From positions 542,053-606,052 of the forward strand of contig JAZKIU010000001.1 in the NCBI GenBank assembly GCA_040384705.1: a DNA stretch of 64,000 nucleotides, in the 5' to 3' direction. A program made the position numbers and the translations under genes. This document shows, piece after piece, positions 25,888 to 58,600 of this stretch (the first letter of the stretch is position 1; every line of letters begins with the position of its first letter). The notes below the pieces were generated by a model, which had not been told where the DNA came from, did no database searches, and saw nothing but the letters and a program-made list of their open reading frames with translations. The DNA comes from Patescibacteria group bacterium (GTDB taxonomy: Bacteria > Patescibacteriota > Minisyncoccia > Phycocordibacterales > Phycocordibacteraceae).

Positions 25888-28605
25888 TTGATTGAAATAC
25901 TTATCAACACCTCTTTCAGTAAAGGGTATCATAACTATGATACCCTTTACTTTATGGAGGTCGTCGCTAAGCAATCATTCAAGGCAATTTATTTCCCTGA
26001 CATTAGGGAGCGGGATACGAAGTCCAAATCATTTACACTTGCCTTCCCGGAAAATGAGAAGAAGGTATACGAGACAATAAGGCACTTCTCAAGCCATGAG
26101 ATGAGGAAAGTTCTAGGAGTAAAGACTTTTTCTGATCTTGAAACGTATGCCACTAAGGCCGACTTGCCGGTAAATAAATTCTGTATTAATAAGCTTAAGT
26201 ATCAACTAGCAAGAGGCGTTAGCGCCGGCCAATTCCCTATTGACCCTGCCCATGTCACCTTCCAGGGCGCTAAGGATATGCCTCTGCAAAATTGGTATCC
26301 ATATCTTGAAGGTTACTCGCCGGACTTTGTTAAGCATATTATCGACACTCACGTTCATAAGTCTGCAAAGGTTATTTACGACCCCTTCTCGGGCACTGGA
26401 ACTACACCGATAGTTGCGTCTGCGCTCGGGTTCACGGCTCTGTATTCAGAAGTTAATCCTTTGCTTCAGTTCTTAACTAAAGTTAAGACAAAGGCGCGAA
26501 ATGCTCCGAACAGAAAGAAGCTTTTACGCCAACTTGAGGCAATTCTCCCTGATCTCAGAATAGAAATTCTTAAACATGACGAGGATCAGGAATTGAGGAA
26601 GACTTATGCAGACACCTTCGGAGAGAGTAAGTTCTTCTCTGAGAAGGTCTTTAGCCATGTTCTTAAGACAAGAACATACCTGAGTACTCTCTATTTTGAG
26701 GACATACTTCTATCCGAACTAGTAACAGTAGCGGTACTTTCCAGCCTAGTTGAGAACTCTTTTCTCAAGCGCCAGGGTGATCTTAGATTTAGACGCGGAA
26801 AGGAGCTCGATGACTTGAAGACGATTGACTTCTTTGAGAGCCTGACGACCCGACTGCAGCAAATGCTTAAGGACTTGGAGCAGATTAGCTCTAGCGATGC
26901 GCCTACATTAATAACTGAGGATGCCCGAAGTGTAGGTAAGCTTCCCTTTCTAGGAATAGACGCTGTCATCACGAGTCCACCCTATCTGAACGGAACAAAC
27001 TATTTCCGCAATACTAAGGTCGAACTCTGGTTCCTTGGGTACTTAAAGACGCAAGCAGATCTAACCAACTTCAGGAGATTGGCCGTTACGGCAGGTATTA
27101 ATGATGTATCTCTCAAAGCCGAGAAATCTGTACATAACCGGGAACTAAATACGCTACTTGAGACCTTGGAGAAGAAGGCCTATGACAAGCGGATACCAAA
27201 GATGGTCTATGACTACTTCGCGGATATGGAAACAATTTTTGGCGATTTGAGAGGACAGCTTAATAAGGATGCTGTACTTGCTATCGATCTTGGTGACTCT
27301 ATCTATGGGGGTGTTCATGTAAAAACGCATAACATACTGGTATCTGTATTGGAGAATATTGGCTACGTTTTTGAAAAGGAGATTGTTCTGAGAAAGCGAC
27401 AATCAAATAACGGTCAGGAGTTAAAGCAAGTCCTGCTTATATTTAGAAACCCAGATCGAATCCAGAAAGAAAAGATAAAGCCTGAATGGCAAAAAGACTG
27501 GAAGAATTTCAAGAAGAATATACCCCACCACCAAGGGGAAATGTCTAAGCGAAACTGGGGAGACCCAATCCATTCACTCTGTTCCTATCAAGGGAAGCTC
27601 AAGCCATCAATTGCTAGCCAACTAGTCTCAATATTTGTTCCTGAGAATGGGAAGATGCTCGATATTTTTGGAGGTGTTGGCACAATTCCGCTTGAGGCCT
27701 CGCTGCAAAACAAAAAATCATACTCCTTCGATATAAGCCCTACCGCCATAGCGATATCGAGAGCAAAGCTCAACCTTCCATCGGTAAAGAAGATATGGCA
27801 GATCGTTGCGGATTTGGATTCTTGGATTCAGAGTAAGAAGTTGTCACAGGACGAGATTCTCACGACAGCCAAGTTCGGAATGAATAAGACCATGAAGGAC
27901 TACTTTCATCCAAAGACGCTCGAGGAAATTACACTTGCAAGAAAGTATTTTGCTAAGGAGGGATACGCTACAACCGAGCATGCACTTGTAATGTCTGCTC
28001 TTATGCACATTCTGCATGGGAATCGACCTTATGCACTAAGCCGCCGTTCGCATGGGATAACTCCTTTCGCCCCTACTGGCGAATTTGAGTATAAGAGCCT
28101 GATAGAAAAGCTGACCGAGAAAGTTGATCGTACCTTGACCCATCTTCAGAGGGACACCTTTAGTCCGGGAGAAGTTTGTTTCCAAGATGCTACGAAGACA
28201 TGGCCAGCAGAAGTGCGCGATCTGGATGCGATCATTACCAGCCCTCCCTTCTTTGATAGCACCCGGTTCTATGCAGCAAACTGGATGCGTCTTTGGTTTG
28301 CTGGTTGGGATGCAGCGCACTTCAAGACTCAGCCAGTGAACTTCGTTGATGAGTTACAAAAAAAAGATTTATCCATCTACGACGGTATCTTTATGCAAGC
28401 ACGGGAACGCCTCAAGAAGGATGGGGTATTTGTACTACATCTCGGCAAAAGCCATAAGTGCGACATGGCAGATGCGCTATCAGGAAGAGCTGCTCGATGG
28501 TTCGAGGTATGCGATATCTTTGAGGAGAGTGTAGAAGATGGAGAGTCTCACGGTATCAAGGACCGCGGCTCGGTTACTAAGCACCAATACCTCGTACTAC
28601 GTTAG
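25888..28605 (+). CDS. Tandem double DNA methyltransferase (two SAM-MTase modules, each motif I DPFSGTGTT / DIFGGVGTI followed by SPPY / SPPF; N4-cytosine-type signature)
   Basis: Motif I at about aa 165 and about 585; motif IV ITSPPYLNG at about 355 and ITSPPFFDS at about 782. AT-rich codon usage unlike the flanks. Annotated start is TTG 25888, alternative ATG 25954. Confidence 0.85.
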   Translation: MIEILINTSFSKGYHNYDTLYFMEVVAKQSFKAIYFPDIRERDTKSKSFTLAFPENEKKVYETIRHFSSHEMRKVLGVKTFSDLETYATKADLPVNKFCINKLKYQLARGVSAGQFPIDPAHVTFQGAKDMPLQNWYPYLEGYSPDFVKHIIDTHVHKSAKVIYDPFSGTGTTPIVASALGFTALYSEVNPLLQFLTKVKTKARNAPNRKKLLRQLEAILPDLRIEILKHDEDQELRKTYADTFGESKFFSEKVFSHVLKTRTYLSTLYFEDILLSELVTVAVLSSLVENSFLKRQGDLRFRRGKELDDLKTIDFFESLTTRLQQMLKDLEQISSSDAPTLITEDARSVGKLPFLGIDAVITSPPYLNGTNYFRNTKVELWFLGYLKTQADLTNFRRLAVTAGINDVSLKAEKSVHNRELNTLLETLEKKAYDKRIPKMVYDYFADMETIFGDLRGQLNKDAVLAIDLGDSIYGGVHVKTHNILVSVLENIGYVFEKEIVLRKRQSNNGQELKQVLLIFRNPDRIQKEKIKPEWQKDWKNFKKNIPHHQGEMSKRNWGDPIHSLCSYQGKLKPSIASQLVSIFVPENGKMLDIFGGVGTIPLEASLQNKKSYSFDISPTAIAISRAKLNLPSVKKIWQIVADLDSWIQSKKLSQDEILTTAKFGMNKTMKDYFHPKTLEEITLARKYFAKEGYATTEHALVMSALMHILHGNRPYALSRRSHGITPFAPTGEFEYKSLIEKLTEKVDRTLTHLQRDTFSPGEVCFQDATKTWPAEVRDLDAIITSPPFFDSTRFYAANWMRLWFAGWDAAHFKTQPVNFVDELQKKDLSIYDGIFMQARERLKKDGVFVLHLGKSHKCDMADALSGRAARWFEVCDIFEESVEDGESHGIKDRGSVTKHQYLVLR

Positions 28606-29606
28606 ATATAGGCAAGTATCTTTCTATTTCCGGCTGACAGCTGGGATACGAGGTCGTAGTCTTCGAGAAGCTTCTTGAGCTCGTCGATGCGCTTAGCGAG
28701 ATCAGTACCGCCACGAACGGTGAGGAACCGTGTGACACAGGCATCAACGTCGATGTTTGCGTTTACAATAGGCATCTTACTTGCCATTAAGCCTAGGTCA
28801 GCACCTGTGATTCTAGCAAGCGCTATGAGTTCGTCGTTTGTATAGAAATCGCTCGGCCATCGATCGCTCTTATTACTATTCGCATCAGTTGAGAGCAGTG
28901 CAGCGTTCTCGTCCGTAAGTGGGTAGAGCCAACGGGACGGAAGAATATGATCAACTGCCCAGGATCTTCGATCCGCTAAGTCTAGAGACTTACCAGTCTT
29001 GAAGCACTTCCCTTCAAAACGTTCGAAAAGGGCCTTCAAATCGGGCTGCCTGTTCTCGCCTTGAAGGAGAAGTTCGGCGGTGCGCCGACGTATCGAAGAC
29101 TCATAGAGCTGCTCCTTGGTTCGCTTCGGATTAAGATCGGCATTGATAACGGCCTTACAGGCTCGGCACTCCATCTGTTTCTCCAATGGACCCCAACCAA
29201 CATGTTTACTGAAATCCCTGGCAGGCAGAATTCGGCCACAGGTCCCACACTGTTTCCAGTATGCTTCTCGCGTTTCAGTTGCTGTCCTGAAGAAAGCCAT
29301 CCAGAAACGTTGAGTTGGAAGATTGCCAGCAGCAGTTTGCTCAAGCTTCCAAGTAGTAAAGGGTAGGCCCTTCCCTTCCAAGTCCGTAAGCGGGAGAGAT
29401 GATCCTTTGGCATGCTCAAAACCGCACTTATTGCATACCCATGACTCTAATTCGTATGCTTCTGTTGGCCTAAGAAGCTGAGTGCCAAGGGGCACGGTAT
29501 TAGACGTTTGACAGCGCACACATACGAAATGTGCGAAGGCAGCGTGAATTGATACGCCCGAAACTCTGGCAATATTTGTCTTATTAGTTGTAGTTCGCCT
29601 AGCCAT
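28602..29606 (-). CDS. HNH-family endonuclease with two N-terminal zinc ribbons (candidate restriction endonuclease)
   Basis: CVRC..CNKCGFEH and CGTCGR..CRACK Cys4 ribbons. C-terminal AVDHILPSRW...NAALLSTDANSNK HNH (His-Asn-Asn/Lys) motif. Convergent with and overlapping the MTase by 4 bp. Confidence 0.75.
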   Translation of the reverse strand: MARRTTTNKTNIARVSGVSIHAAFAHFVCVRCQTSNTVPLGTQLLRPTEAYELESWVCNKCGFEHAKGSSLPLTDLEGKGLPFTTWKLEQTAAGNLPTQRFWMAFFRTATETREAYWKQCGTCGRILPARDFSKHVGWGPLEKQMECRACKAVINADLNPKRTKEQLYESSIRRRTAELLLQGENRQPDLKALFERFEGKCFKTGKSLDLADRRSWAVDHILPSRWLYPLTDENAALLSTDANSNKSDRWPSDFYTNDELIALARITGADLGLMASKMPIVNANIDVDACVTRFLTVRGGTDLAKRIDELKKLLEDYDLVSQLSAGNRKILAYI

Positions 29607-43386: not shown

Positions 43387-45369
43387 ATGCCCGAGACGAA
43401 GGAGACATACGAAGGACCGATCATCATCACGCGTACCGGAAAAGGATTCTTCTCGGCCGACCCTGAGAAGCCCGACCTCTACATCCCTGCCGAGAACCTC
43501 GGCGGTGCGTTCCCTGGCGACATCGTCCGGATAGAGACAGCGGGAACCGAGTTCGACCCTAGGACGCGCGAGAAGCGCATCATCGGCAAGGTGGTGGATA
43601 TCGTGGAGCGTAACCGCACGACGTTCGTGGGAGCGCTATACCGGAACGAGGAAGAGAACCTTGTCATGCTCGCGCCCGATTGGAAGAAGATGTACGTGCC
43701 GTTCGTGGTGAAGGGCGAGTCGCTCCCGCTCGGCCACAAGGTGCTCATCCGTTTCCAGGGATGGGCGAGCAACCAGCCGTACCCGTGGGGCACGCTCGAG
43801 GAGATAATCGGGCCTGCCGGAGAGCACGAGACCGAGATGCGGGCGCTCGCACTTTCCCAAGGATTCCGCAGCGACTTCCCTCCCGGTGTGATGCAGGAAG
43901 CGAAGGAACTCGAGACGACAGGAAGGGCGACCATCGCTGCCGAGGCGGCAAAAGCGCTTCCCGAGAGCGAACGCGAGACGAAGGGACGCCATGACTTCCG
44001 CGGCATCACGACCTTCACCATCGATCCGTTCGATGCGAAGGACTTCGATGATGCGCTTTCAGTGCGCACGCTTGCGAACGGAAACACGGAGGTGGGCGTG
44101 CACATCGCCGACGTCTCGTATTTCGTACGCCCCGGCACATCGATAGACGCGGAGGGTCGCGCCCGCGCCACTTCGGTGTACCTCGTCGACCGCACCATCC
44201 CAATGCTCCCGCACGTCCTCTCGAACGACCTCTGCTCACTCAACCCGAACGAGGACCGGCTCGCGGTGTCCGCCGTCTTCGAGCTCGATGGCAATGCCGG
44301 GATAGTGAACCGATGGTTCGGCGAGACCGTCATCCACTCGGATAAGCGCTTTACGTATGAGGAGGCGCAGGAAGTGCTTGATGCGCAGGACGGCATCTTC
44401 CTTGCCGAACTTAATACCCTGAAGACGCTCGCCGATAAGATACGCGCCCGCCGCGTATCGAAGGGCGCGATAGCCTTTGATACCCCTGAAGTGAAGGTGC
44501 TCATCGACGAGAACGGCAAGCCGACCGATATCGTGCTCAAGGAGCGCCGCGCTACCAACCTCCTCATCGAGGATTTCATGCTGCTCGCGAACGAAGCGGT
44601 AGCCGAGTACCTCTCGGAAGCGACGAAAGCCGCGAACATCCAGAGTTCCGTCATATACCGCACGCACGATGTGCCTGATGCGGACCGCATCGAGAGCCTC
44701 GCGCAGTTCCTCAAAGTGATGGGCTACAACCTCGAGAGCACGAACGGCAGGGTGAAGGGCACCGCCATCAACGAACTGCTGACCGAAGTCGCCGGGAAGC
44801 CCGAGGAATACCTCATCAAGGTCGCCGCGCTCCGGTCCATGGCCAAGGCGATATACGCCACCAAGAACATCGGGCACTTCGGTCTCGCGTTCGAGTTCTA
44901 CACGCACTTCACTTCCCCAATCCGCCGCTACCCTGACCTCCTCATCCACCGCCTCCTCAAGCACTACCGCAACGAAGGCGAGTTCAGCAAGGCGCAGGTC
45001 GCAGAGCTCGACGAGCTATCCCTCCATTCGTCCGAGCGCGAAGTGTCCGCCGCCGAGGCCGAGCGCGATTCCATCAAGCTCAAGGTAGTGGAGTTCATGG
45101 CCGACAAGGTCGGCGAGGAGTTCGATGCGGTCATCTCCGGCGTGTCCGAGCGCGGTCTCTACGTTGAATTGAATACGACGCGTGCGGAAGGCATGATACG
45201 CATACGGGATCTCGGTGATGACTACTACATCCACGACGAGAAGCGCTACCGCATCGTGGGCGAGCGCACCAAGAAGGAGTACGCGCTCGGTGACCCTATC
45301 AAGGTGAAGCTCATCGCTGCCCGGGTGATGGAGCGCGAGCTCGATTTCGCTATCGTTCCGAAGGGTTAG
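43387..45369 (+). CDS. rnr: Ribonuclease R (RNB-family 3'-5' exoribonuclease with C-terminal S1 domain)
   Basis: RNB catalytic motifs (DFDDALSV, SVYLVDRTIPMLP), C-terminal S1 (FDAVISGVSERGLYVEL). Confidence 0.9.
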   Translation: MPETKETYEGPIIITRTGKGFFSADPEKPDLYIPAENLGGAFPGDIVRIETAGTEFDPRTREKRIIGKVVDIVERNRTTFVGALYRNEEENLVMLAPDWKKMYVPFVVKGESLPLGHKVLIRFQGWASNQPYPWGTLEEIIGPAGEHETEMRALALSQGFRSDFPPGVMQEAKELETTGRATIAAEAAKALPESERETKGRHDFRGITTFTIDPFDAKDFDDALSVRTLANGNTEVGVHIADVSYFVRPGTSIDAEGRARATSVYLVDRTIPMLPHVLSNDLCSLNPNEDRLAVSAVFELDGNAGIVNRWFGETVIHSDKRFTYEEAQEVLDAQDGIFLAELNTLKTLADKIRARRVSKGAIAFDTPEVKVLIDENGKPTDIVLKERRATNLLIEDFMLLANEAVAEYLSEATKAANIQSSVIYRTHDVPDADRIESLAQFLKVMGYNLESTNGRVKGTAINELLTEVAGKPEEYLIKVAALRSMAKAIYATKNIGHFGLAFEFYTHFTSPIRRYPDLLIHRLLKHYRNEGEFSKAQVAELDELSLHSSEREVSAAEAERDSIKLKVVEFMADKVGEEFDAVISGVSERGLYVELNTTRAEGMIRIRDLGDDYYIHDEKRYRIVGERTKKEYALGDPIKVKLIAARVMERELDFAIVPKG

Positions 45370-51628: not shown

Positions 51629-52315
51629 CTACACTATATCTTTAGCAAGCGCCGCCTGCGCCGCGCTCTGTTCCGCTTCCTGCTTGCTCCTCCCTGTTCC
51701 TTCTGCCACCTTCTCGTCACCGAGGTATACGCCCACCGTGAAGTGCTTGTCGTGGTCGGGACCCACTTCCGAAAGCGTCTTGTATGTGGGTGTCGTGCTC
51801 TTCTTATCCTGCGCTATCTCCTGGAAATGCGACTTCGCATCCTGGTATGAGCCGGTCGCGATGACGTTATCTATCTTCGAATAGAGATGCGTGGCGACGA
51901 ACGCTTCGGCAGCAACGTAGCCCTGGTCGAGGTATATGGCACCGAGGAGCGCCTCGAACGCGTTCGCGAGGATGATGAGGCGCGCGCGCCCCGTGTCCTT
52001 CTTCTCTCCCTTGGACAGCAGCAGCATGTCGTTGAGCCCTATGCGCTCCGCGACGTCGGCGAGCGAGTACGTATTCACGAGCGCCGCCCTGTATGCGGTG
52101 AGGTCGCCCTCCGGCTTGTTCGGGAAGCGGTTGAAGAGGAAGTGGGTGACGGCGAGCTCGAGCACGGCGTCGCCGAGGAACTCAAGGCGTTCGTTGTGGT
52201 TCCCTGCCCCGCGGTTCTCATTGAGATACGAGCGATGGGTAAGAGCCTCGATGAATATATCGAGGTCCTTGAAGGCGAGGCCCAGCTGCTCCGCGTGCGT
52301 CTTGAATTCAGGCAT
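51629..52315 (-). CDS. rnc: Ribonuclease III
   Basis: RNase III signature ERLEFLGDAVLEL, C-terminal dsRBD (GPDHDKHFTVGVYLGDEKVAEGTGRSKQEAEQSAA). ATG 52315. Confidence 0.9.
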   Translation of the reverse strand: MPEFKTHAEQLGLAFKDLDIFIEALTHRSYLNENRGAGNHNERLEFLGDAVLELAVTHFLFNRFPNKPEGDLTAYRAALVNTYSLADVAERIGLNDMLLLSKGEKKDTGRARLIILANAFEALLGAIYLDQGYVAAEAFVATHLYSKIDNVIATGSYQDAKSHFQEIAQDKKSTTPTYKTLSEVGPDHDKHFTVGVYLGDEKVAEGTGRSKQEAEQSAAQAALAKDIV

Positions 52316-52398
52316 AGAGTGAAGTGAACCACAAAATGTATAAAAGAAAAGCCGCGGCAGGTGGAGCTGCTGCGGCTTGGAGTCTGGTCGGTTCGCCA

Positions 52399-53058
52399 TT
52401 AGGGCCGGGTAAGGCCATTCATGCCCTCGTGGGTATCAGGAGGGACGATGATGAGGCCCTTCTCGTACAGGCGATGGTACTGGGAAGGAAGGAAGCCCTG
52501 GTCCGCCATGATCCGATGGAATTCGTCCACGCTGACGTATTTAGGCACTTCGCCTTCGTTCTCGTGATGCTCGCTATTGAGCAGCGACAGGACATTCTCC
52601 TCGACATCGACCGAGACGAGCACGTTCCAGAATCTTCCGCGCCAGACAGCGCCCTCGTACTGGTAGTGATGCGTCTCCGGCGAGAGCGCGAGGCCGGTCT
52701 CGCCATAGATTTCACGGACCCCGGTCGTGAGCACCGTTTCATCGTCGTGCTTCTTGCCGCCCGGCATCTTGTAGTACCAGGGCTGGCTCTTGCAGTAGTC
52801 GATGACGAACACGTATCCGAGGGGGATACGCTTCGGGCGTACGGCTTTCGCAGCAGCCTCCTCTTCGGTCAGCTCGCGACCGATCGGATCGACCGAGAGC
52901 GCTCCGTTCGGGAAGACCCTGATGAACGCGATGACCGACCACGTATCGTCGGGCCGACCGTTGTCGGCGATGAACCGATTCATGATCTGCTCGTCGATAG
53001 CGGATGGGATGCGAACCTCGCACCCATTGAGGTCGAGGGCCGAGAATCTGAGTGTCAA
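52399..53058 (-). CDS. NUDIX hydrolase
   Basis: Nudix box GGKKHDDETVLTTGVREIYGETG. Confidence 0.8.
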   Translation of the reverse strand: MTLRFSALDLNGCEVRIPSAIDEQIMNRFIADNGRPDDTWSVIAFIRVFPNGALSVDPIGRELTEEEAAAKAVRPKRIPLGYVFVIDYCKSQPWYYKMPGGKKHDDETVLTTGVREIYGETGLALSPETHHYQYEGAVWRGRFWNVLVSVDVEENVLSLLNSEHHENEGEVPKYVSVDEFHRIMADQGFLPSQYHRLYEKGLIIVPPDTHEGMNGLTRP

Positions 53059-53157
53059 AACGCACCTCCTCGCAGCTGTGCTGCGTTATTTCGAAGGAGG
53101 CGCACTACGCACCTCTGGCCGCATTATATATACGAGTACGGAAATGTCAATCTCTCC

Positions 53158-54060
53158 CTACGACGTCCTATCCAAGAGCTTCTGCACCGCTGCGGTCACT
53201 ATCGGCAGCATATCGTCATAGAAATTGAGGTCGAGGATGTCCTGGAGGCGGAACCACTTCGTATCATCGAGCCCGCCCTTCCCGGCCTCGAGCTTGAGCG
53301 GGACGTATTCGGAGCGCGCGAGGAAATAGATGACATGCTTCCGGAACTTCCCCTTCTCCGGGTGCGAGGCGACGTACTCGTTCTCTCCCACCTGCTCCTC
53401 GATGACGATATCGACGCCCATCTCCTCCTTTATCTCCCGGATGGTGCCTTCCTCCGCGTTCTCCCCTTCCTCGAGCTTCCCCTTCGAGAGCGTCCAATGG
53501 CCGAACACGTCGTGCACGAGCGCGAGATAGTACTGGCCCTCGTGCTTGGCATACACGACCGCGCCGCCGAGCCGCTCGACACGCATGTCCTCGTACCGCA
53601 TCTTCGACTTATCCTTCTTACCGGTCTCTTCCTTGCCGGGTTCGCCCAGCTCCTTATACACGGCACCGAGCACGCCGTTCACGAAGCGTCCCGAGGAGTC
53701 CCCACCGAACACTTTCGCGAGCTCGATAGCCTCGTTGATAGCGACCTTGGCCGGGACCTGCGCGCGGTCCGCGAACAGAAGCTCGAACAGGCCTATGCGC
53801 AGGATATTGCGGTCGACTGGCGCAATGCGGTCGAGCGGCCAATCAGGCGCTGCCTTCGTTATGACGAGGTCGAGATCCTCTTTCTTCGCGAGCACTCCCT
53901 TCAAAAGGGTTTCCATGAATGGCTTATCGGTATCATCCCCGCCGAATTCCTCGACGTTCCGCAGGAGCATTACATCCGCTTCGGAAACATCGGCACCCGT
54001 AGTGTCCCACTCGAAGAGCGTTTGTAGGACGACGGAACGTGCGAGATGTCGGTTAGCCAT
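53158..54060 (-). CDS. nusB: NusB-like antitermination domain fused to a C-terminal NUDIX hydrolase domain
   Basis: N-terminus ARSVVLQTLFEWD...DRNILRIGLFELLF...AINEAIELAKVFGGDSSGRFVNGVLGAV is NusB. C-terminus has Nudix box GKLEEGENAEEGTIREIKEEMGV. Confidence 0.8.
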   Translation of the reverse strand: MANRHLARSVVLQTLFEWDTTGADVSEADVMLLRNVEEFGGDDTDKPFMETLLKGVLAKKEDLDLVITKAAPDWPLDRIAPVDRNILRIGLFELLFADRAQVPAKVAINEAIELAKVFGGDSSGRFVNGVLGAVYKELGEPGKEETGKKDKSKMRYEDMRVERLGGAVVYAKHEGQYYLALVHDVFGHWTLSKGKLEEGENAEEGTIREIKEEMGVDIVIEEQVGENEYVASHPEKGKFRKHVIYFLARSEYVPLKLEAGKGGLDDTKWFRLQDILDLNFYDDMLPIVTAAVQKLLDRTS

Positions 54061-54137
54061 ATGGAAAGAACGTATCCATACAATACACCCGACATGATGA
54101 AAGATACTAGTAGCGGGTGGTGTGAATAAAAGATAAA

Positions 54138-54175
54138 AGAAAAAGCCGAGGACGAACCTCGGCTTTTTCTTTCTC
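54138..54175. terminator. Bidirectional intrinsic terminator (AGCCGAGG-acgaa-CCTCGGCT with A5/T5 flanks)
   Basis: Hairpin with flanking A-run and T-run, immediately downstream of rpmF. Confidence 0.8.
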
Positions 54176-54186
54176 TATCGAGTGGC

Positions 54187-54543
54187 TTATGCGCCGCCGC
54201 CGAAACCGGAGCGCGACTTCGCCTTGCCCTTGGTCATGCGACCGATGAGGCCCTGCTTCTTCTCCTTGGAATCCTCGACGGTGTGCTTCTCCTCGTGGAC
54301 CGGCTGCTTTGCGCCGAGCTCGAGGTCGGCGTTGTCCTTCTGGTTGCGATCCTTGCGCTTCTTGTCCTCCTTGAGTGCTTTCTTGCGCTCGGGCACGATG
54401 AGCTTGCCGCGGTACATTCCCGTAGCTTCATCGATGCGGTGCGGGAGGCGGAGGTTGCCGCTCTCCTTATCTTTCACGACCTTAGTAGCCGTCAGAGCGT
54501 GGTGGCTCCGGCGGTTCTTGGTATGCGAACTGGTGTGGCGCAT
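54187..54543 (-). CDS. rpmF: 50S ribosomal protein L32 with long Lys-rich C-terminal extension
   Basis: MRHTSSHTKNRRSHHALTA..LRLPHRIDEATGMYRGKLIV matches L32. About 65 extra basic residues at the C-terminus. Confidence 0.8.
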   Translation of the reverse strand: MRHTSSHTKNRRSHHALTATKVVKDKESGNLRLPHRIDEATGMYRGKLIVPERKKALKEDKKRKDRNQKDNADLELGAKQPVHEEKHTVEDSKEKKQGLIGRMTKGKAKSRSGFGGGA

Positions 54544-54991
54544 TCGTACTGACATAGGCCCTACCCTACCACACGGCCTTTTTCCTGGCTAGCGTTGCGC
54601 ACCCTTGGCACTTGCGGAAACGTGTAGGTGTGGGAATGTGAGATTAGCTACCGTCTGGAGAGAATCACTTGACCACGGCAGCCGTTCGCTGGCCCACGTT
54701 GGGTTCACAGAAGCCACTATCGAAGCCATGAGAGCTGAGATGAAGACTGAAGCGAATATTGACACTGTTGTTCTCGTCATCGAAAAAGGGGATGAGCTTC
54801 TGAACTTTTCCGTTGAGGTGGACGATCATCTTCCTCCTCCGGACGACTAGCACCTTTGGGGCTAGTCAACCCCCAGGATGCTGGGCTATATGAGCATCCA
54901 CTGCCAAAGTCCCTCGCCGATGCAGCGCTTGCGCCCGCTCAGTGAACCGGACAAAGGGTCGCGCGAATACTTTCGTGCGGCCCTTTCGGAT

Positions 54992-55573
54992 TTAGATATT
55001 TCGTAGGAATGAGCGACGATGCTCGATACAGGGACCGTGAGCCCGAATGAGTGCGATGTGCGTTTTCGTACCGTACCCCTTGTGCTGTTCGAATCCATAG
55101 AGCGGATACGTTTCTGCAAGCTTCACCATCATGCGATCACGCGTCACCTTCGCAGCGATAGAGGCGAGCATGATGGAAGGCACAATGCCGTCGCCTCCTA
55201 TTACCGTCTCCTGCTCGTATTCGGCCGGCGCCTTGAGCGAACCATCGAGCCACACCTTCCCTTCTTCGGGCGTGGGGAGGAGTTTCGTAACCCCCGTCAT
55301 TACCGCATGCCGTATCGCGGGCGCGATGCCTCCCTTATCTATGTTCGCTGCTGACACGAGCTGCACGCTCGCACGCACGTTTCCTGCCTTTATTTGTTCT
55401 TGAAGTATCTGAAATAATGCTTCGCGCTTTTTCTCCGAGAGTTTCTTGGAATCGTTAAGTCCTGGGAATACTGCAAGGATGTCGTACCCTTCAGCGACCG
55501 CGATGATGCCGACCGATACCGGTCCTGCGAGCGGCCCGCGACCCGCTTCATCCACCCCTACGACCCATTTCAT
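54992..55573 (-). CDS. rnhB: Ribonuclease HII
   Basis: VVGVDEAGRGPLAGPV catalytic motif. ATG 55573. The upstream extension of the listed ORF would overlap dnaE. Confidence 0.9.
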   Translation of the reverse strand: MKWVVGVDEAGRGPLAGPVSVGIIAVAEGYDILAVFPGLNDSKKLSEKKREALFQILQEQIKAGNVRASVQLVSAANIDKGGIAPAIRHAVMTGVTKLLPTPEEGKVWLDGSLKAPAEYEQETVIGGDGIVPSIMLASIAAKVTRDRMMVKLAETYPLYGFEQHKGYGTKTHIALIRAHGPCIEHRRSFLRNI

Positions 55574-55615
55574 CGATGAATCATAGCAGTACTGAAATTT
55601 GCTATTGTGTACCCA

Positions 55616-58600
55616 ATGGCCGGCCGCTTCATCCATCTCCACACACATAGCCACTATTCCTTCCTCCAGGCTCTCCCGAAGGTGCCGGAACTCGTCAAAG
55701 CAGCCAAGGCAGCGGGCATGGACGCGCTCGGCATCACGGACGCCGGCAATATGCACGGCACCATCGAGTTCTATAAAGCTGCGGAGAAAGCGGGCATCAA
55801 TCCGATAATCGGGGTGGATGCGTATCTCGCGCCCGGGTCACGCAAGGATGTGGGAGCAACGGAGATAGGAGGTCGCACACGTCTCGTGCTCCTTGCGGAG
55901 AACAATGCGGGGTACCAGAACCTCATGGCGCTCATCACGAAGTCGTTCACCGAGGGATATAGCGAGCGGCCGCACATGGACCGCGAGATATTGCGCGAGC
56001 ACCATGATGGGCTCATCGCGCTCATCCCCTCGTTCGCGGGTACGGTGGCGCAATATCTGAAGCATGGAGATAAGGACGGGGCGGCGGCGGCACTCGCGGA
56101 ATACGTCAGCATATTCGGCGAAGGTAATGTGTTCCTCGAGATAACGCATCACCCGAAGGCCGACGGCCACATGAAGCGCATGGAAGATATCATCGCGCTA
56201 TCGAAGAGCTCAGGAGTCCCGCTCGTCGCCCAGCATGACGTCTACTACCTCAAGCCCGCCGACAGCGAAGCGACCGAGGTCATGCGCCGCATCGCGCACG
56301 GCACGAGCAGCAAGAACGAGGAGGAGGACTTCTCCTTCGTGAGCGAGGAGCAGATGCTGAAATGGTTCCCCGAGCACAAGGATGCGGTGCTGCGCTCGGG
56401 CGAGATAGCGGATAGGTGCAAAGTGGAGCTCAAGCTCGGGAGCTGGAACTTCCCCGCGGTCGATGTCGAGCCCGGCAAGACGCATGCGGAGATGCTCCGT
56501 GAGCGCACGTACGCAGGACTCTCTGGGCGCGGCATGGAGCGCTCCGAGGAAGCTGAGAAGCGCATCGAATATGAGCTTGATGTCATCATCGGCAAAGGCT
56601 TCGCTCCGTACTTCCTCGCGGTGTCGGACCTGCTCGCGTACGCACGCGCGAACGGCATCCTCACCACGACTCGAGGGTCTGCCGCAGGCTCGCTCGTCTC
56701 GTACCTCACGGGCATCACGAACGTGGACCCGCTCGAGTACAAGCTTCCCTTCGAGCGCTTCTTGAACCCGGAACGCCCGAAGGCGCCGGATATCGACATG
56801 GACTTCGCCGACGATAGGCGCGACGACATGATCGCGTATGCGAAGGCGAAGTACGGGGAGGATAGGGTGGCGCAGATAGGAACGTTCGGAACCATGATGG
56901 CGAGGGCTGCGGTGCGAGACGTGTCGCGCGCCTTGGGCCACGCATACCGCACCGGCGACCGCATAGCGAAATTGATACCGCTCGGCTCCCAAGGCTTCCC
57001 GATGACGATAACCCGCGCGCTCGAGCTCGAGCCGGAACTCAAGACCCTATATAACGAGGACGACGATACGAGAGAGATAATCGACCTCGCGAAGCGCATC
57101 GAGGGCTGCGTGCGCCATACGGGAGTGCACGCGGCGGGCGTGGTCATTTCGCCAACCCCGCTCACCGAATGGACGCCGCTCCAGGTGGACCCTAAGACCG
57201 GGAAGCTGATAACGCAGTACGACATGCATGCGGTCGAGGATGCTGGGCTCCTCAAGTTCGACTTCCTCGGCATCAAGAACCTCGCCATCCTCTCGGATGC
57301 GGTCGAGCGCGTGCGGGAGACCAAGGGCATTTACATAGACATCGAGAACGTTCCCATAAATGACAGCAAGACGTTTGCCATGCTCGCCCGCGGCGAGACG
57401 GAAGGCACGTTCCAGCTGAACGGTTCGGGAATGACCCGGTACCTCAAGGAGCTCCAGCCCACGAGCATCCACGACATCAACGCTATGGTGGCGCTCTACC
57501 GCCCAGGCCCGATGGAAACCATCCCGCAGTACATCGAGCGCAAGAAGAACCCGAAGCTCGTCCGCTATATGGACGAGCGCATGAAGGACTATCTCGATGC
57601 TTCGTACGGGCTCCTCGTGTACCAGGACGACGTGCTCCTGACCGCTATCACCCTCGGCGGGTACTCGTGGCTCGAGGCCGATACGCTCCGAAAGGCCATG
57701 GGTAAGAAGATCCCGGCGGAGATGGAAGCGCAGAAGGAGAAGCTCCTTAACGGCTTTATGGAATACGGGAAGCTTTCGAAAGAGAAAGCGGAGACTATCT
57801 GGAAGCTCATCGAGCCGTTCGCCGCCTACGGGTTCAACAAGGCGCATGCCGCCTGCTACGGGAAGGTCGCGTACCAGACCGCCTATATGAAGGCGAACTA
57901 TCCGGTCGAGTACATGGCGGCACTCCTTACCGCTGACGCAGGCGACACCGAAGCCATCGCCATCCTCGCCGCCGAGTGCGAACGCTTGAACATTCCCCTT
58001 CTCCCGCCTGATGTGAACGAGAGCGGTGCGGACTTCACGGTCGCTGGAGAGAACAAGGACACGGTCCGTTTCGGGCTTACCTCTATCAAGAACTTCGGTG
58101 AGGGCATTTCCCAAGCGCTCATTAAAGAAAGGAAAGAGAACGGCACCTTCAAGGATCTTTCTGATTTCCTTTCGCGCGTCGGTACGAAGAACCTGAATCG
58201 CAAGTCGCTCGAGTGCCTCATCAAGACCGGGGCGTTGGATCGCTTCGGTGAGCGCGGCCATCTGCTCACCCACATCGAGAAGCTGCTTACCTTCCATCGG
58301 GATGCGACTGCCGAAGCGCCCCAGGATTCCCTCTTCGGCGCGTCGTTCGGTACGCCCGTTCTCACGCTTCCGCCTCCATCAGGCGAGACGTCCCTTTCCG
58401 AGAAACTGCTTTGGGAGAAAGATTTGCTCGGTATCTATGTGTCGGGCCATCCGCTCGATGCGCATACCGCGACCATGACGAAAGCAGGGCTCACCATCGG
58501 CCAACTGCTTGAGGAGCCACAGCCAGGACGGCTCGTAATCCTTCCGGTGCTCGTACAGGAAGTCCGCACCGTGCTCACTAAGACCGGAGAGAAGATGGCG

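Follow-up and report, generated by a model that had tools for sequence, protein, structure and literature searches.

We report that a 64,000-nucleotide stretch of DNA from a Patescibacteria group bacterium (GenBank assembly GCA_040384705.1, contig JAZKIU010000001.1, positions 542,053 to 606,052; hereafter the window) encodes a 300-residue protein in which a NusB domain is joined to a Nudix domain. The arrangement is a widespread, apparently undescribed variant of NusB and not a new kind of system. For decades NusB has been studied as nothing more than a small adaptor that binds RNA and protein. The explanation of the added domain that we favor, at slightly less than an even chance, is that the NusB of this lineage would work with ribosomal protein S10 on BoxA RNA and thereby tether a Nudix domain of the diadenosine tetraphosphate (Ap4A) hydrolase type to a nucleoside-polyphosphate 5' end.

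NusB and Nudix domains share one open reading frame

The fusion gene, designated nusB::nudix, and the parts of its product are as follows.

53158..54060, minus strand: nusB::nudix fusion gene, an uninterrupted open reading frame (ORF) of 300 residues plus stop
53647..54060, minus strand: NusB domain, residues 1-138, seven helices (Pfam, TIGR01951 and AlphaFold2 model)
53581..53646, minus strand: Lys/Glu-rich flexible linker, residues 139-160 (model confidence and family comparison)
53161..53580, minus strand: Ap4A-hydrolase-like Nudix domain, residues 161-300 (Pfam NUDIX, Foldseek and phmmer)
53413..53481, minus strand: Nudix box GKLEEGENAEEGTIREIKEEMGV, residues 194-216 (read from the translation)

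The Pfam models for NusB (PF01029) and NUDIX (PF00293) both matched the 300-residue ORF above their gathering thresholds (GA), the former at residues 7-136 (E 1.3e-34, 119.9 bits versus a GA of 23.1) and the latter at residues 176-284 (E 9.2e-13, 48.8 bits versus a GA of 21.1). The box in the window translation, GKLEEGENAEEGTIREIKEEMGV, fits the pattern GX5EX7REUXEEXGU exactly. The preliminary description of this DNA had claimed an intact NusB fold and a complete Nudix box in a single protein, and these matches bear it out. It had also raised the possibility that the N-terminal region is only superficially NusB-like; this is ruled out by the score of the protein against the NCBIfam NusB equivalog TIGR01951 (128.7 bits versus a cutoff of 88.35).

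The AlphaFold2 (AF2) model of the NusB domain (predicted local distance difference test, pLDDT, 90.9) has seven helices spanning residues 4-138 with pLDDT mostly >90, and Foldseek aligned it with M. tuberculosis NusB (1eyv) at a TMt of 0.85 and 36% identity. Alignment with E. coli NusB showed conservation of the VAINEAIELAK...FVNGVL segment. Within it F126, which does not vary among the 57 family representatives, aligns with E. coli F122; in the crystal structure of NusB-NusE-BoxA the latter residue stacks on U8 of BoxA (PMC3177189). F16 aligns with E. coli Y18, a NusE interface residue (PMC3177189), and is a conservative change. R4 and R8 are ≥90% conserved in the family. No second NusB was found within the 64-kb window. 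As judged from these comparisons the N-terminal domain is a canonical NusB. The 300-residue gene could be the organism's nusB, a proposition that forms part of the tethering proposal and is just as tentative.

The two domains seem to be flexibly tethered, since linker residues 141-152 have AF2 pLDDT values <50 and the model has a predicted template modeling score (pTM) of 0.63. In the 300-residue protein the disordered linker is 20-25 residues long. Family-wide the linker varies from 9 to 39 residues, among which E, K, D, P and G are abundant.

An artefact in which two separate genes were joined by a frameshift or a misassembly, the other doubt raised in the preliminary description, has a negligible probability. 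Nothing in the window favors it, and the presence of the same single ORF in hundreds of independent assemblies rules it out. Some 1-kb metagenome contigs do give apparent stand-alone halves, but these are themselves frameshifted or truncated fusion genes. A stand-alone NusB (P0191) and a stand-alone Nudix protein (P0147), considered as natural split forms that could lend the fusion Rosetta-stone support, both came from ~1-kb contigs on which tblastn revealed broken fusions; they are evidence neither way.

The fusion is spread through the Patescibacteria

A protein identical to the window fusion was found on a 640-kb NCBI contig. All of the best 120 homologues (77-100% identity) contain both Pfam domains; their sources are given as Patescibacteria, Kaiserbacteria or Paceibacterota, and the extra domain is hidden by public annotation, which reads just 'NusB'. 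A pattern scan of one genome per species showed that at least 349 GTDB species encode a close relative of the fusion, and a HMMER search of 50%-identity representatives gave at least 57 clusters of full-length fusions (270-360 residues), reaching down to ~32% identity. A profile made from the distant members retrieved more two-domain proteins, labeled Nomurabacteria or Paceibacterota. The phylogenetic distribution, which the preliminary description had left to be established, is therefore that of a fusion spread through the Patescibacteria (Kaiserbacteria, Nomurabacteria and other Paceibacteria). Together with the tethering proposal, and again at a little under an even chance, we suppose that the architecture may be ancestral and nearly universal in this large block (Paceibacteria including Kaiserbacteria and Nomurabacteria).

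In the literature on NusB with Nudix, on fusions or on Patescibacteria we found no description of a NusB-Nudix architecture, in line with the preliminary description, which was not aware of it as a characterized one. Several metagenome-assembled genomes with near-identical loci (L006, L010, L080 and similar ones) are titled Saccharibacteria or Bacillota; they are probably mislabeled Paceibacteria.

The Nudix domain resembles Ap4A hydrolases

The AF2 alpha/beta/alpha model of the fused domain matches many Nudix structures. Foldseek searches against the PDB gave as the first match the Aquifex Ap4A hydrolase (3i7u, TMt 0.86-0.90), followed by Rv2985/MutT1, Ndx1 (an Ap6A hydrolase), NUDT2 and CT771. 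The phmmer search pointed to the same set, its best matches being Ndx1, CT771, Rv2985 and an Ap4A hydrolase of C. elegans. The equivalog models for RppH (NF001936, 25.4 versus 118 bits), YtkD (TIGR02705, 17.1 versus 154.4 bits) and MutT (NF008044, 22.9 versus 148 bits; TIGR00586, 20.4 versus 97.9 bits) were not reached by the domain. Given its best neighbors in structure and sequence and its scores far below the RppH, YtkD and MutT cutoffs, the fused domain is by these comparisons Ap4A-hydrolase-like and outside the RppH and MutT families. A PHROGs scan returned generic Nudix families only.

The motif that precedes the box in the window protein is WTLSKG, in which the lysine of W-x-x-P-K-G is kept and the proline is replaced by serine; no curated subfamily model for diadenosine polyphosphate (ApnA) hydrolases was passed. 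In the C. elegans Ap4A hydrolase the residues that align with K193, Y245 and Y281 are, respectively, the lysine of PKG, Y87 and Y121, the last of which we take to stack on adenine. With its mean isoelectric point of 5.7 the domain is acidic.

These affinities bear on a rival explanation, which we consider rather unlikely, in which the domain would be a housekeeping enzyme that hydrolyzes free Ap4A, other ApnA or another nucleotide and leaves RNA ends untouched. It would clear dinucleoside polyphosphates that RNA polymerase could otherwise take as initiators, and fusion to NusB would provide stoichiometric co-expression or local action. The nearest relatives (aq_158, Ndx1, NUDT2, CT771 and Rv2985) are indeed free-ApnA hydrolases, many small-molecule Nudix enzymes are likewise acidic, and the box is intact in major clades. 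However, the fusion persists to ~33% identity next to rnc, the RNase III gene, which argues for a link to RNA processing, and it is difficult to see why a purely metabolic enzyme would repeatedly undergo catalytic erosion, as described below, and yet keep the domain and its W/K/Y residues. In favor of the tethering proposal, ApnA hydrolysis and RNA 5'-end decapping overlap as activity classes, since E. coli RppH/NudH hydrolyzes ApnA and also removes dinucleoside-polyphosphate (NpnN) caps and 5'-triphosphates from RNA (PMC7044304).

Catalytic residues are eroded where candidate ligand-binding residues are kept

Most of the Kaiserbacteria-type homologues (n = 120) keep REIKEE. Fusions of this type (P0004-P0120) mostly carry a five-residue insert in the GX5E loop (e.g., GKIGDNPAIANE) and retain EX7REUXEEXG; the window protein is without the insert. 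Among the Nomurabacteria-type homologues the RE pair is kept in 95 of 120 and the second E of the EE pair in 119 of 120. Erosion is found in the 57 divergent 50%-identity representatives, only 9 of which have all five key residues and 27 of which have two or fewer. Intact and eroded boxes are interspersed on a rough neighbor-joining tree (16 parsimony changes), an interspersion that is only suggestive because the tree is poorly resolved.

Family-wide, the near-invariant positions of the Nudix domain are non-catalytic ones only. In the eroded group (27 representatives with ≤2 of the 5 catalytic residues) W189, K193, Y245, W269 and Y281 are conserved at 85-93% and Y229 at ~67%; W189, K193, Y245 and Y281 are the candidates for ligand contact. 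The domain has thus been maintained where hydrolysis has probably been lost, which points to a conserved role in ligand binding or in structure. The preliminary description had proposed RppH-like decapping or nucleotide sanitation. By the family cutoffs the domain is neither RppH nor MutT, and because many of the divergent lineages show erosion of catalytic residues, decapping or sanitation cannot be the universally conserved role; the broader idea of a coupling to RNA 5' ends stays plausible.

The same residues raise the possibility, which we deem unlikely, that the Nudix domain is a non-catalytic module, either a sensor of Ap4A, ADP-ribose or another nucleotide or a scaffold in the antitermination complex, with catalysis secondary. 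Retention of the six W, K and Y residues in the 27 box-eroded representatives and the non-catalytic nature of every near-invariant position would fit such a role, as would the presence of the NrtR Nudix domain among the fold matches. There is also a parallel in SuhB, a protein of phosphatase fold which is described as a subunit of the E. coli rRNA antitermination complex (PMC6614797, PMC6614801). Against this, purifying selection on the full box is clear in the two largest clades, the window protein has a perfect box, and the conserved aromatic residues could be mere fold-core residues.

A BoxA-like element precedes the fusion gene

Upstream of nusB::nudix two short elements were located.

54065..54071, minus strand: BoxA-like core GTTCTTT, 4 nt before the nusB::nudix ATG
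54080..54085, minus strand: -10-like hexamer TATTGT of the putative nusB::nudix promoter (read from the sequence)

The predicted leader RNA of nusB::nudix is 5'-ACGUUCUUUCCAUAUG. The BoxA consensus is GYTCTTTAANA and the motif corresponds to its positions 1-7 (PMC5725501).

For comparison we used related loci, 80 of which were fetched as the synteny sample. Of 79 related loci, 66 have RNTCTTT, and 43 have GYTCTTT, within the 22 nt that precede the start of the fusion gene. By the same test RNTCTTT was found before smc in 0 of 67 loci, before rpmF in 0 of 77 and in 1.3% of background windows, and the motif is thus specific to the fusion gene among its neighbors. Its logo, A-G-[C/A/T]-T-C-T-T-T-[C/T]-[C/A], ends 2-6 nt from the ATG. 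The motif was considered as a general translation signal of the genome, an explanation that was rejected because the starts of other genes, both in the window and in the loci, are without it.

A TAnnnT hexamer, often TGCTATACT, precedes the BoxA-like motif in the related loci and ends 8-10 nt (~9) before it. With the -10-like hexamer ~9 nt upstream, standard promoter geometry would put the motif 1-3 nt from the predicted transcript 5' end. In other bacteria, Nus factor genes are autoregulated through BoxA elements that lie near their start codons (PMC5725501). As the BoxA-like motif stands before the fusion start and is absent upstream of the neighboring genes, it suggests that the operon may be autoregulated.

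Neither the window nor the 80 loci contain rRNA genes with which BoxA could be compared, and a search of the whole 64-kb window with Rfam at gathering thresholds gave no matches (no tRNA, rRNA or riboswitch). In many window genes a TATACT-like hexamer lies 10-20 nt upstream of the ATG and a Shine-Dalgarno sequence is lacking, an arrangement that points to very short leaders.

rpmF, nusB::nudix and rnc form a conserved unit

Five co-oriented ORFs are found on the minus strand of the window in the order rnhB, rpmF, the 300-residue ORF, a 219-residue ORF and rnc; smc is farther downstream and dnaE is upstream and divergent. The neighbors of the fusion gene and an element between it and rpmF are listed here, the 219-residue ORF being treated separately below.

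54992-55756, minus strand: rnhB
54187..54555, minus strand: rpmF (ribosomal protein L32), conserved upstream neighbor (Pfam Ribosomal_L32p at residues 6-53, E 1e-10; TIGR01031, 47.4 bits)
54135..54173, minus strand: intrinsic-terminator-like hairpin and T-run 3' of rpmF (pattern scan; 17-pair stem, T-rich tail)
51629..52399, minus strand: rnc (RNase III), conserved downstream partner (TIGR02191, 257.9 bits versus 166.25)

Across the 80 loci rpmF is upstream of the fusion in 77 and rnc is downstream in 75, directly after the fusion (≤150 nt) in 66 of those 75; rnhB, dnaE and smc are also usual. Four lineages at 33-42% identity (L089-L092) have a different wider neighborhood, and in them rnc follows the fusion by 4-16 nt and rpmF precedes it in three of the four. 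Because this order is kept both in the 80-locus set and in the distant lineages, rpmF, nusB::nudix and rnc are a conserved unit, and the earlier observation of rnc as a neighbor is extended to that of a conserved partner. Co-transcription of nusB::nudix with rnc is a further part of the tethering proposal and shares its standing, possible but somewhat short of evenly balanced.

The rnc product of the window contains both the Ribonuclease_3 and dsrm domains. The first 28 codons of its ORF (52315-52399) are unaligned in relatives and overlap the stop codon of the 219-residue gene. Since the alignment with relatives begins only at about residue 28 of the window ORF, the true rnc start may be M29 at 52315. 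At the place of the terminator-like hairpin of the window, related loci likewise have GC-rich hairpins with a T-run behind them after rpmF. The window L32 protein has 122 residues, of which only 6-53 fit the model, the remainder being a Lys/Glu-rich C-terminal extension; L32 in the distant relatives has 63-72 residues.

Other features of the window were also recorded. RNase R (43387-45369, plus strand), RNase HII and RNase III are all encoded ≤12 kb from the fusion, and RNase R is near the locus in L083 as well. An antisense ORF of 567 residues (52324-54027, plus strand) spans both Nudix genes and is most likely a spurious frame of GC-rich sequence. A low-GC island at ~25900-29600 (~44-50% versus ~59%), which encodes a 905-residue DNA methyltransferase (N6_N4_Mtase) and a 334-residue ORF with a weak Cas12f1/TnpB-like match, was probably acquired horizontally.

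The second Nudix gene is a rare accessory insertion

Between nusB::nudix and rnc the window contains a second gene of the Nudix fold, together with its own predicted promoter.

52399..53058, minus strand: stand-alone Nudix-fold gene, 219 residues, with box REIYGETG and an ENEGE motif (Pfam NUDIX, 25.5 bits versus a GA of 21.1)
53123..53150, minus strand: perfect sigma-70 consensus promoter TTGACA-16-TATAAT before the accessory Nudix gene (12 of 12 matches)

The box of the 219-residue protein, GKKHDDETVLTTGVREIYGETGL, has REx2GE in place of REx2EE and does not fit the canonical Nudix box. REx2GExG and ENEGExP are invariant in the eight members of its family, the only homologues found among 5.8 billion clusters. 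Its model has a generic Nudix fold (pLDDT 71) with a weak likeness to ADP-ribose pyrophosphatases. A Shine-Dalgarno-like GAGGAGGTG (GAGGAGG) lies 4 nt before the TTG start, in contrast to most other window genes, which have a -10-like element only and no Shine-Dalgarno sequence.

Two readings of the gene were rejected. It is not a tandem duplicate of the fused domain, to which its sequence is unrelated (BLASTP E 0.51), and it is not a conserved partner, being present in only one of the 80 related loci. Elsewhere the slot between nusB::nudix and rnc is either vacant or occupied by unrelated ORFs (L028, 5970-6431; L058, 5955-6698; L076, 5946-6452; L078, 7010-8569). Since unrelated ORFs have been inserted there in several relatives, the slot is a variable insertion hotspot. 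The 219-residue gene is thus a rare accessory insertion associated with the locus and not a core component. Of the earlier claim that a NUDIX gene stands directly downstream, its presence holds, with a weak match above the GA, but with its non-canonical box it falls outside the conserved arrangement.

The title of the preliminary description implied a dedicated module in which fused and stand-alone Nudix proteins act with RNase III. The few stand-alone homologues are mostly in the same nusB-rnc-smc locus (L020, L083/L084, L085/L086), and in the window the stop codon of the accessory gene overlaps the start of the rnc ORF. Nevertheless, such a two-Nudix system is very unlikely given the rarity of the gene, the unrelated ORFs that fill the same slot elsewhere, the location of one homologue at another site, and a consensus promoter of its own for a gene unrelated to the fused domain.

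Proposed mechanism

We propose that the N-terminal domain would pair with S10/NusE on BoxA RNA and so enter the rRNA antitermination complex, with NusB and S10 giving RNA affinity and specificity via a BoxA near the transcript 5' end. The acidic Nudix domain, presumably a poor RNA binder alone, would thereby be held beside that end, whether a 5'-triphosphate or an NpnN-type cap. It would bind the 5' end and, in proteins with an intact box (including that of the window), might hydrolyze it to a 5'-monophosphate. Together with RNase III cleavage this would license leader turnover and recycle the Nus factors. Through the BoxA-like element at the predicted 5' end of the mRNA, the same interaction could autoregulate the operon. 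We favor this model of 5'-end binding and hydrolysis because the Nudix domain is acidic, NusB would supply the RNA targeting, and a candidate BoxA lies at the predicted 5' end.

Several observations weigh against the tethering proposal. The domain falls below the RppH, YtkD and MutT family cutoffs and, acidic as it is, has no obvious RNA-binding surface. Roughly half of the divergent representatives at 50% identity have eroded catalytic Glu and Arg residues and, as this erosion is scattered on the rough neighbor-joining tree, hydrolysis appears to be dispensable in many lineages. The BoxA match is confined to the 7-nt core, the AANA tail being absent; 22 of 67 loci have A instead of Y as the third base of the motif, and in some distant, AT-rich lineages no copy, or only a displaced one, is present. 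Both the free-ApnA housekeeping enzyme and the non-catalytic sensor or scaffold are credible rivals.

The tethering proposal has a bolder form, which we regard as rather improbable, in which the NusB of the Paceibacteria would itself be a reader and eraser of RNA 5' ends, BoxA binding (with S10) bringing the Nudix domain to the 5'-triphosphate or NpnN cap, both on nascent pre-rRNA and on the mRNA of the protein itself. If so, 5'-end chemistry would be coupled with leader decay, Nus factor recycling and autoregulation of the operon, the Nudix domain would persist as a cap-binding clamp in box-eroded lineages, and NusB would be the first among Nus factors to act enzymatically on the transcript that it regulates. 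More generally, a covalent phosphohydrolase domain beside RNase III is a candidate link between rRNA antitermination and processing and the chemistry found at RNA 5' ends, whether triphosphate or dinucleoside-polyphosphate caps. To our knowledge the RNA metabolism of candidate-phyla-radiation bacteria, which have reduced genomes, is almost unexplored. The fusion offers a clonable protein, a candidate RNA ligand (GNUCUUU) and a natural series of box-intact and box-eroded forms.

Comparison with known systems

The Ap4A and Ap6A hydrolases (aq_158, 3i7u; Ndx1, 1vc8; NUDT2; C. elegans, 1ktg; CT771; Rv2985) resemble the window domain, whose box is complete, at TMt values up to 0.90 and share with it W-x-x-x-K-G before the box and the aligned tyrosines. 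They differ in that identity to the fusion is only 25-27% and that the fusion has NusB attached; moreover, many relatives of the fusion have the five-residue GX5E-loop insert or have lost catalytic glutamates. RppH/NudH and B. subtilis RppH (YtkD) have the Nudix fold and belong to the activity class that we suggest for the fusion. RppH binds RNA unaided, whereas in the fusion RNA targeting would come from the NusB domain.

SuhB and the NrtR Nudix sensor are both enzyme-fold domains of transcription complexes or regulators in which catalysis is not the main role, and they may parallel the box-eroded lineages. However, the fusion has no homology to SuhB and its likeness to NrtR is at the fold level only (rmsd ~9 Å). 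The regulatory element recalls the BoxA autoregulation of Nus factors exemplified by E. coli suhB (Baniulyte et al. 2017, PMC5725501), where likewise a GYTCTTT-type element and the start codon of a Nus factor gene lie close together. The element described here differs in preceding nusB itself, an arrangement not found directly in that study, and is a candidate with a 7-nt core match only, in a predicted leader that is very short.

A NusB-like N-terminal domain joined to a 16S rRNA methyltransferase in RsmB/Sun provides a precedent for a NusB fold targeting an enzyme directed at rRNA. There the enzyme is a methyltransferase and here it is a Nudix domain, and the N-terminal part of the fusion is a true NusB (the RsmB model is weak, 61 versus 319 bits). 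With canonical NusB (E. coli, Aquifex and M. tuberculosis; PF01029, TIGR01951) the fusion shares the all-helical fold, FVNGVL with the BoxA-stacking Phe, and the N-terminal arginines. It differs in its extra C-terminal Nudix domain of 140 residues on a flexible linker, in the position of its gene between rpmF and rnc, and in the BoxA-like element right before its own start codon.

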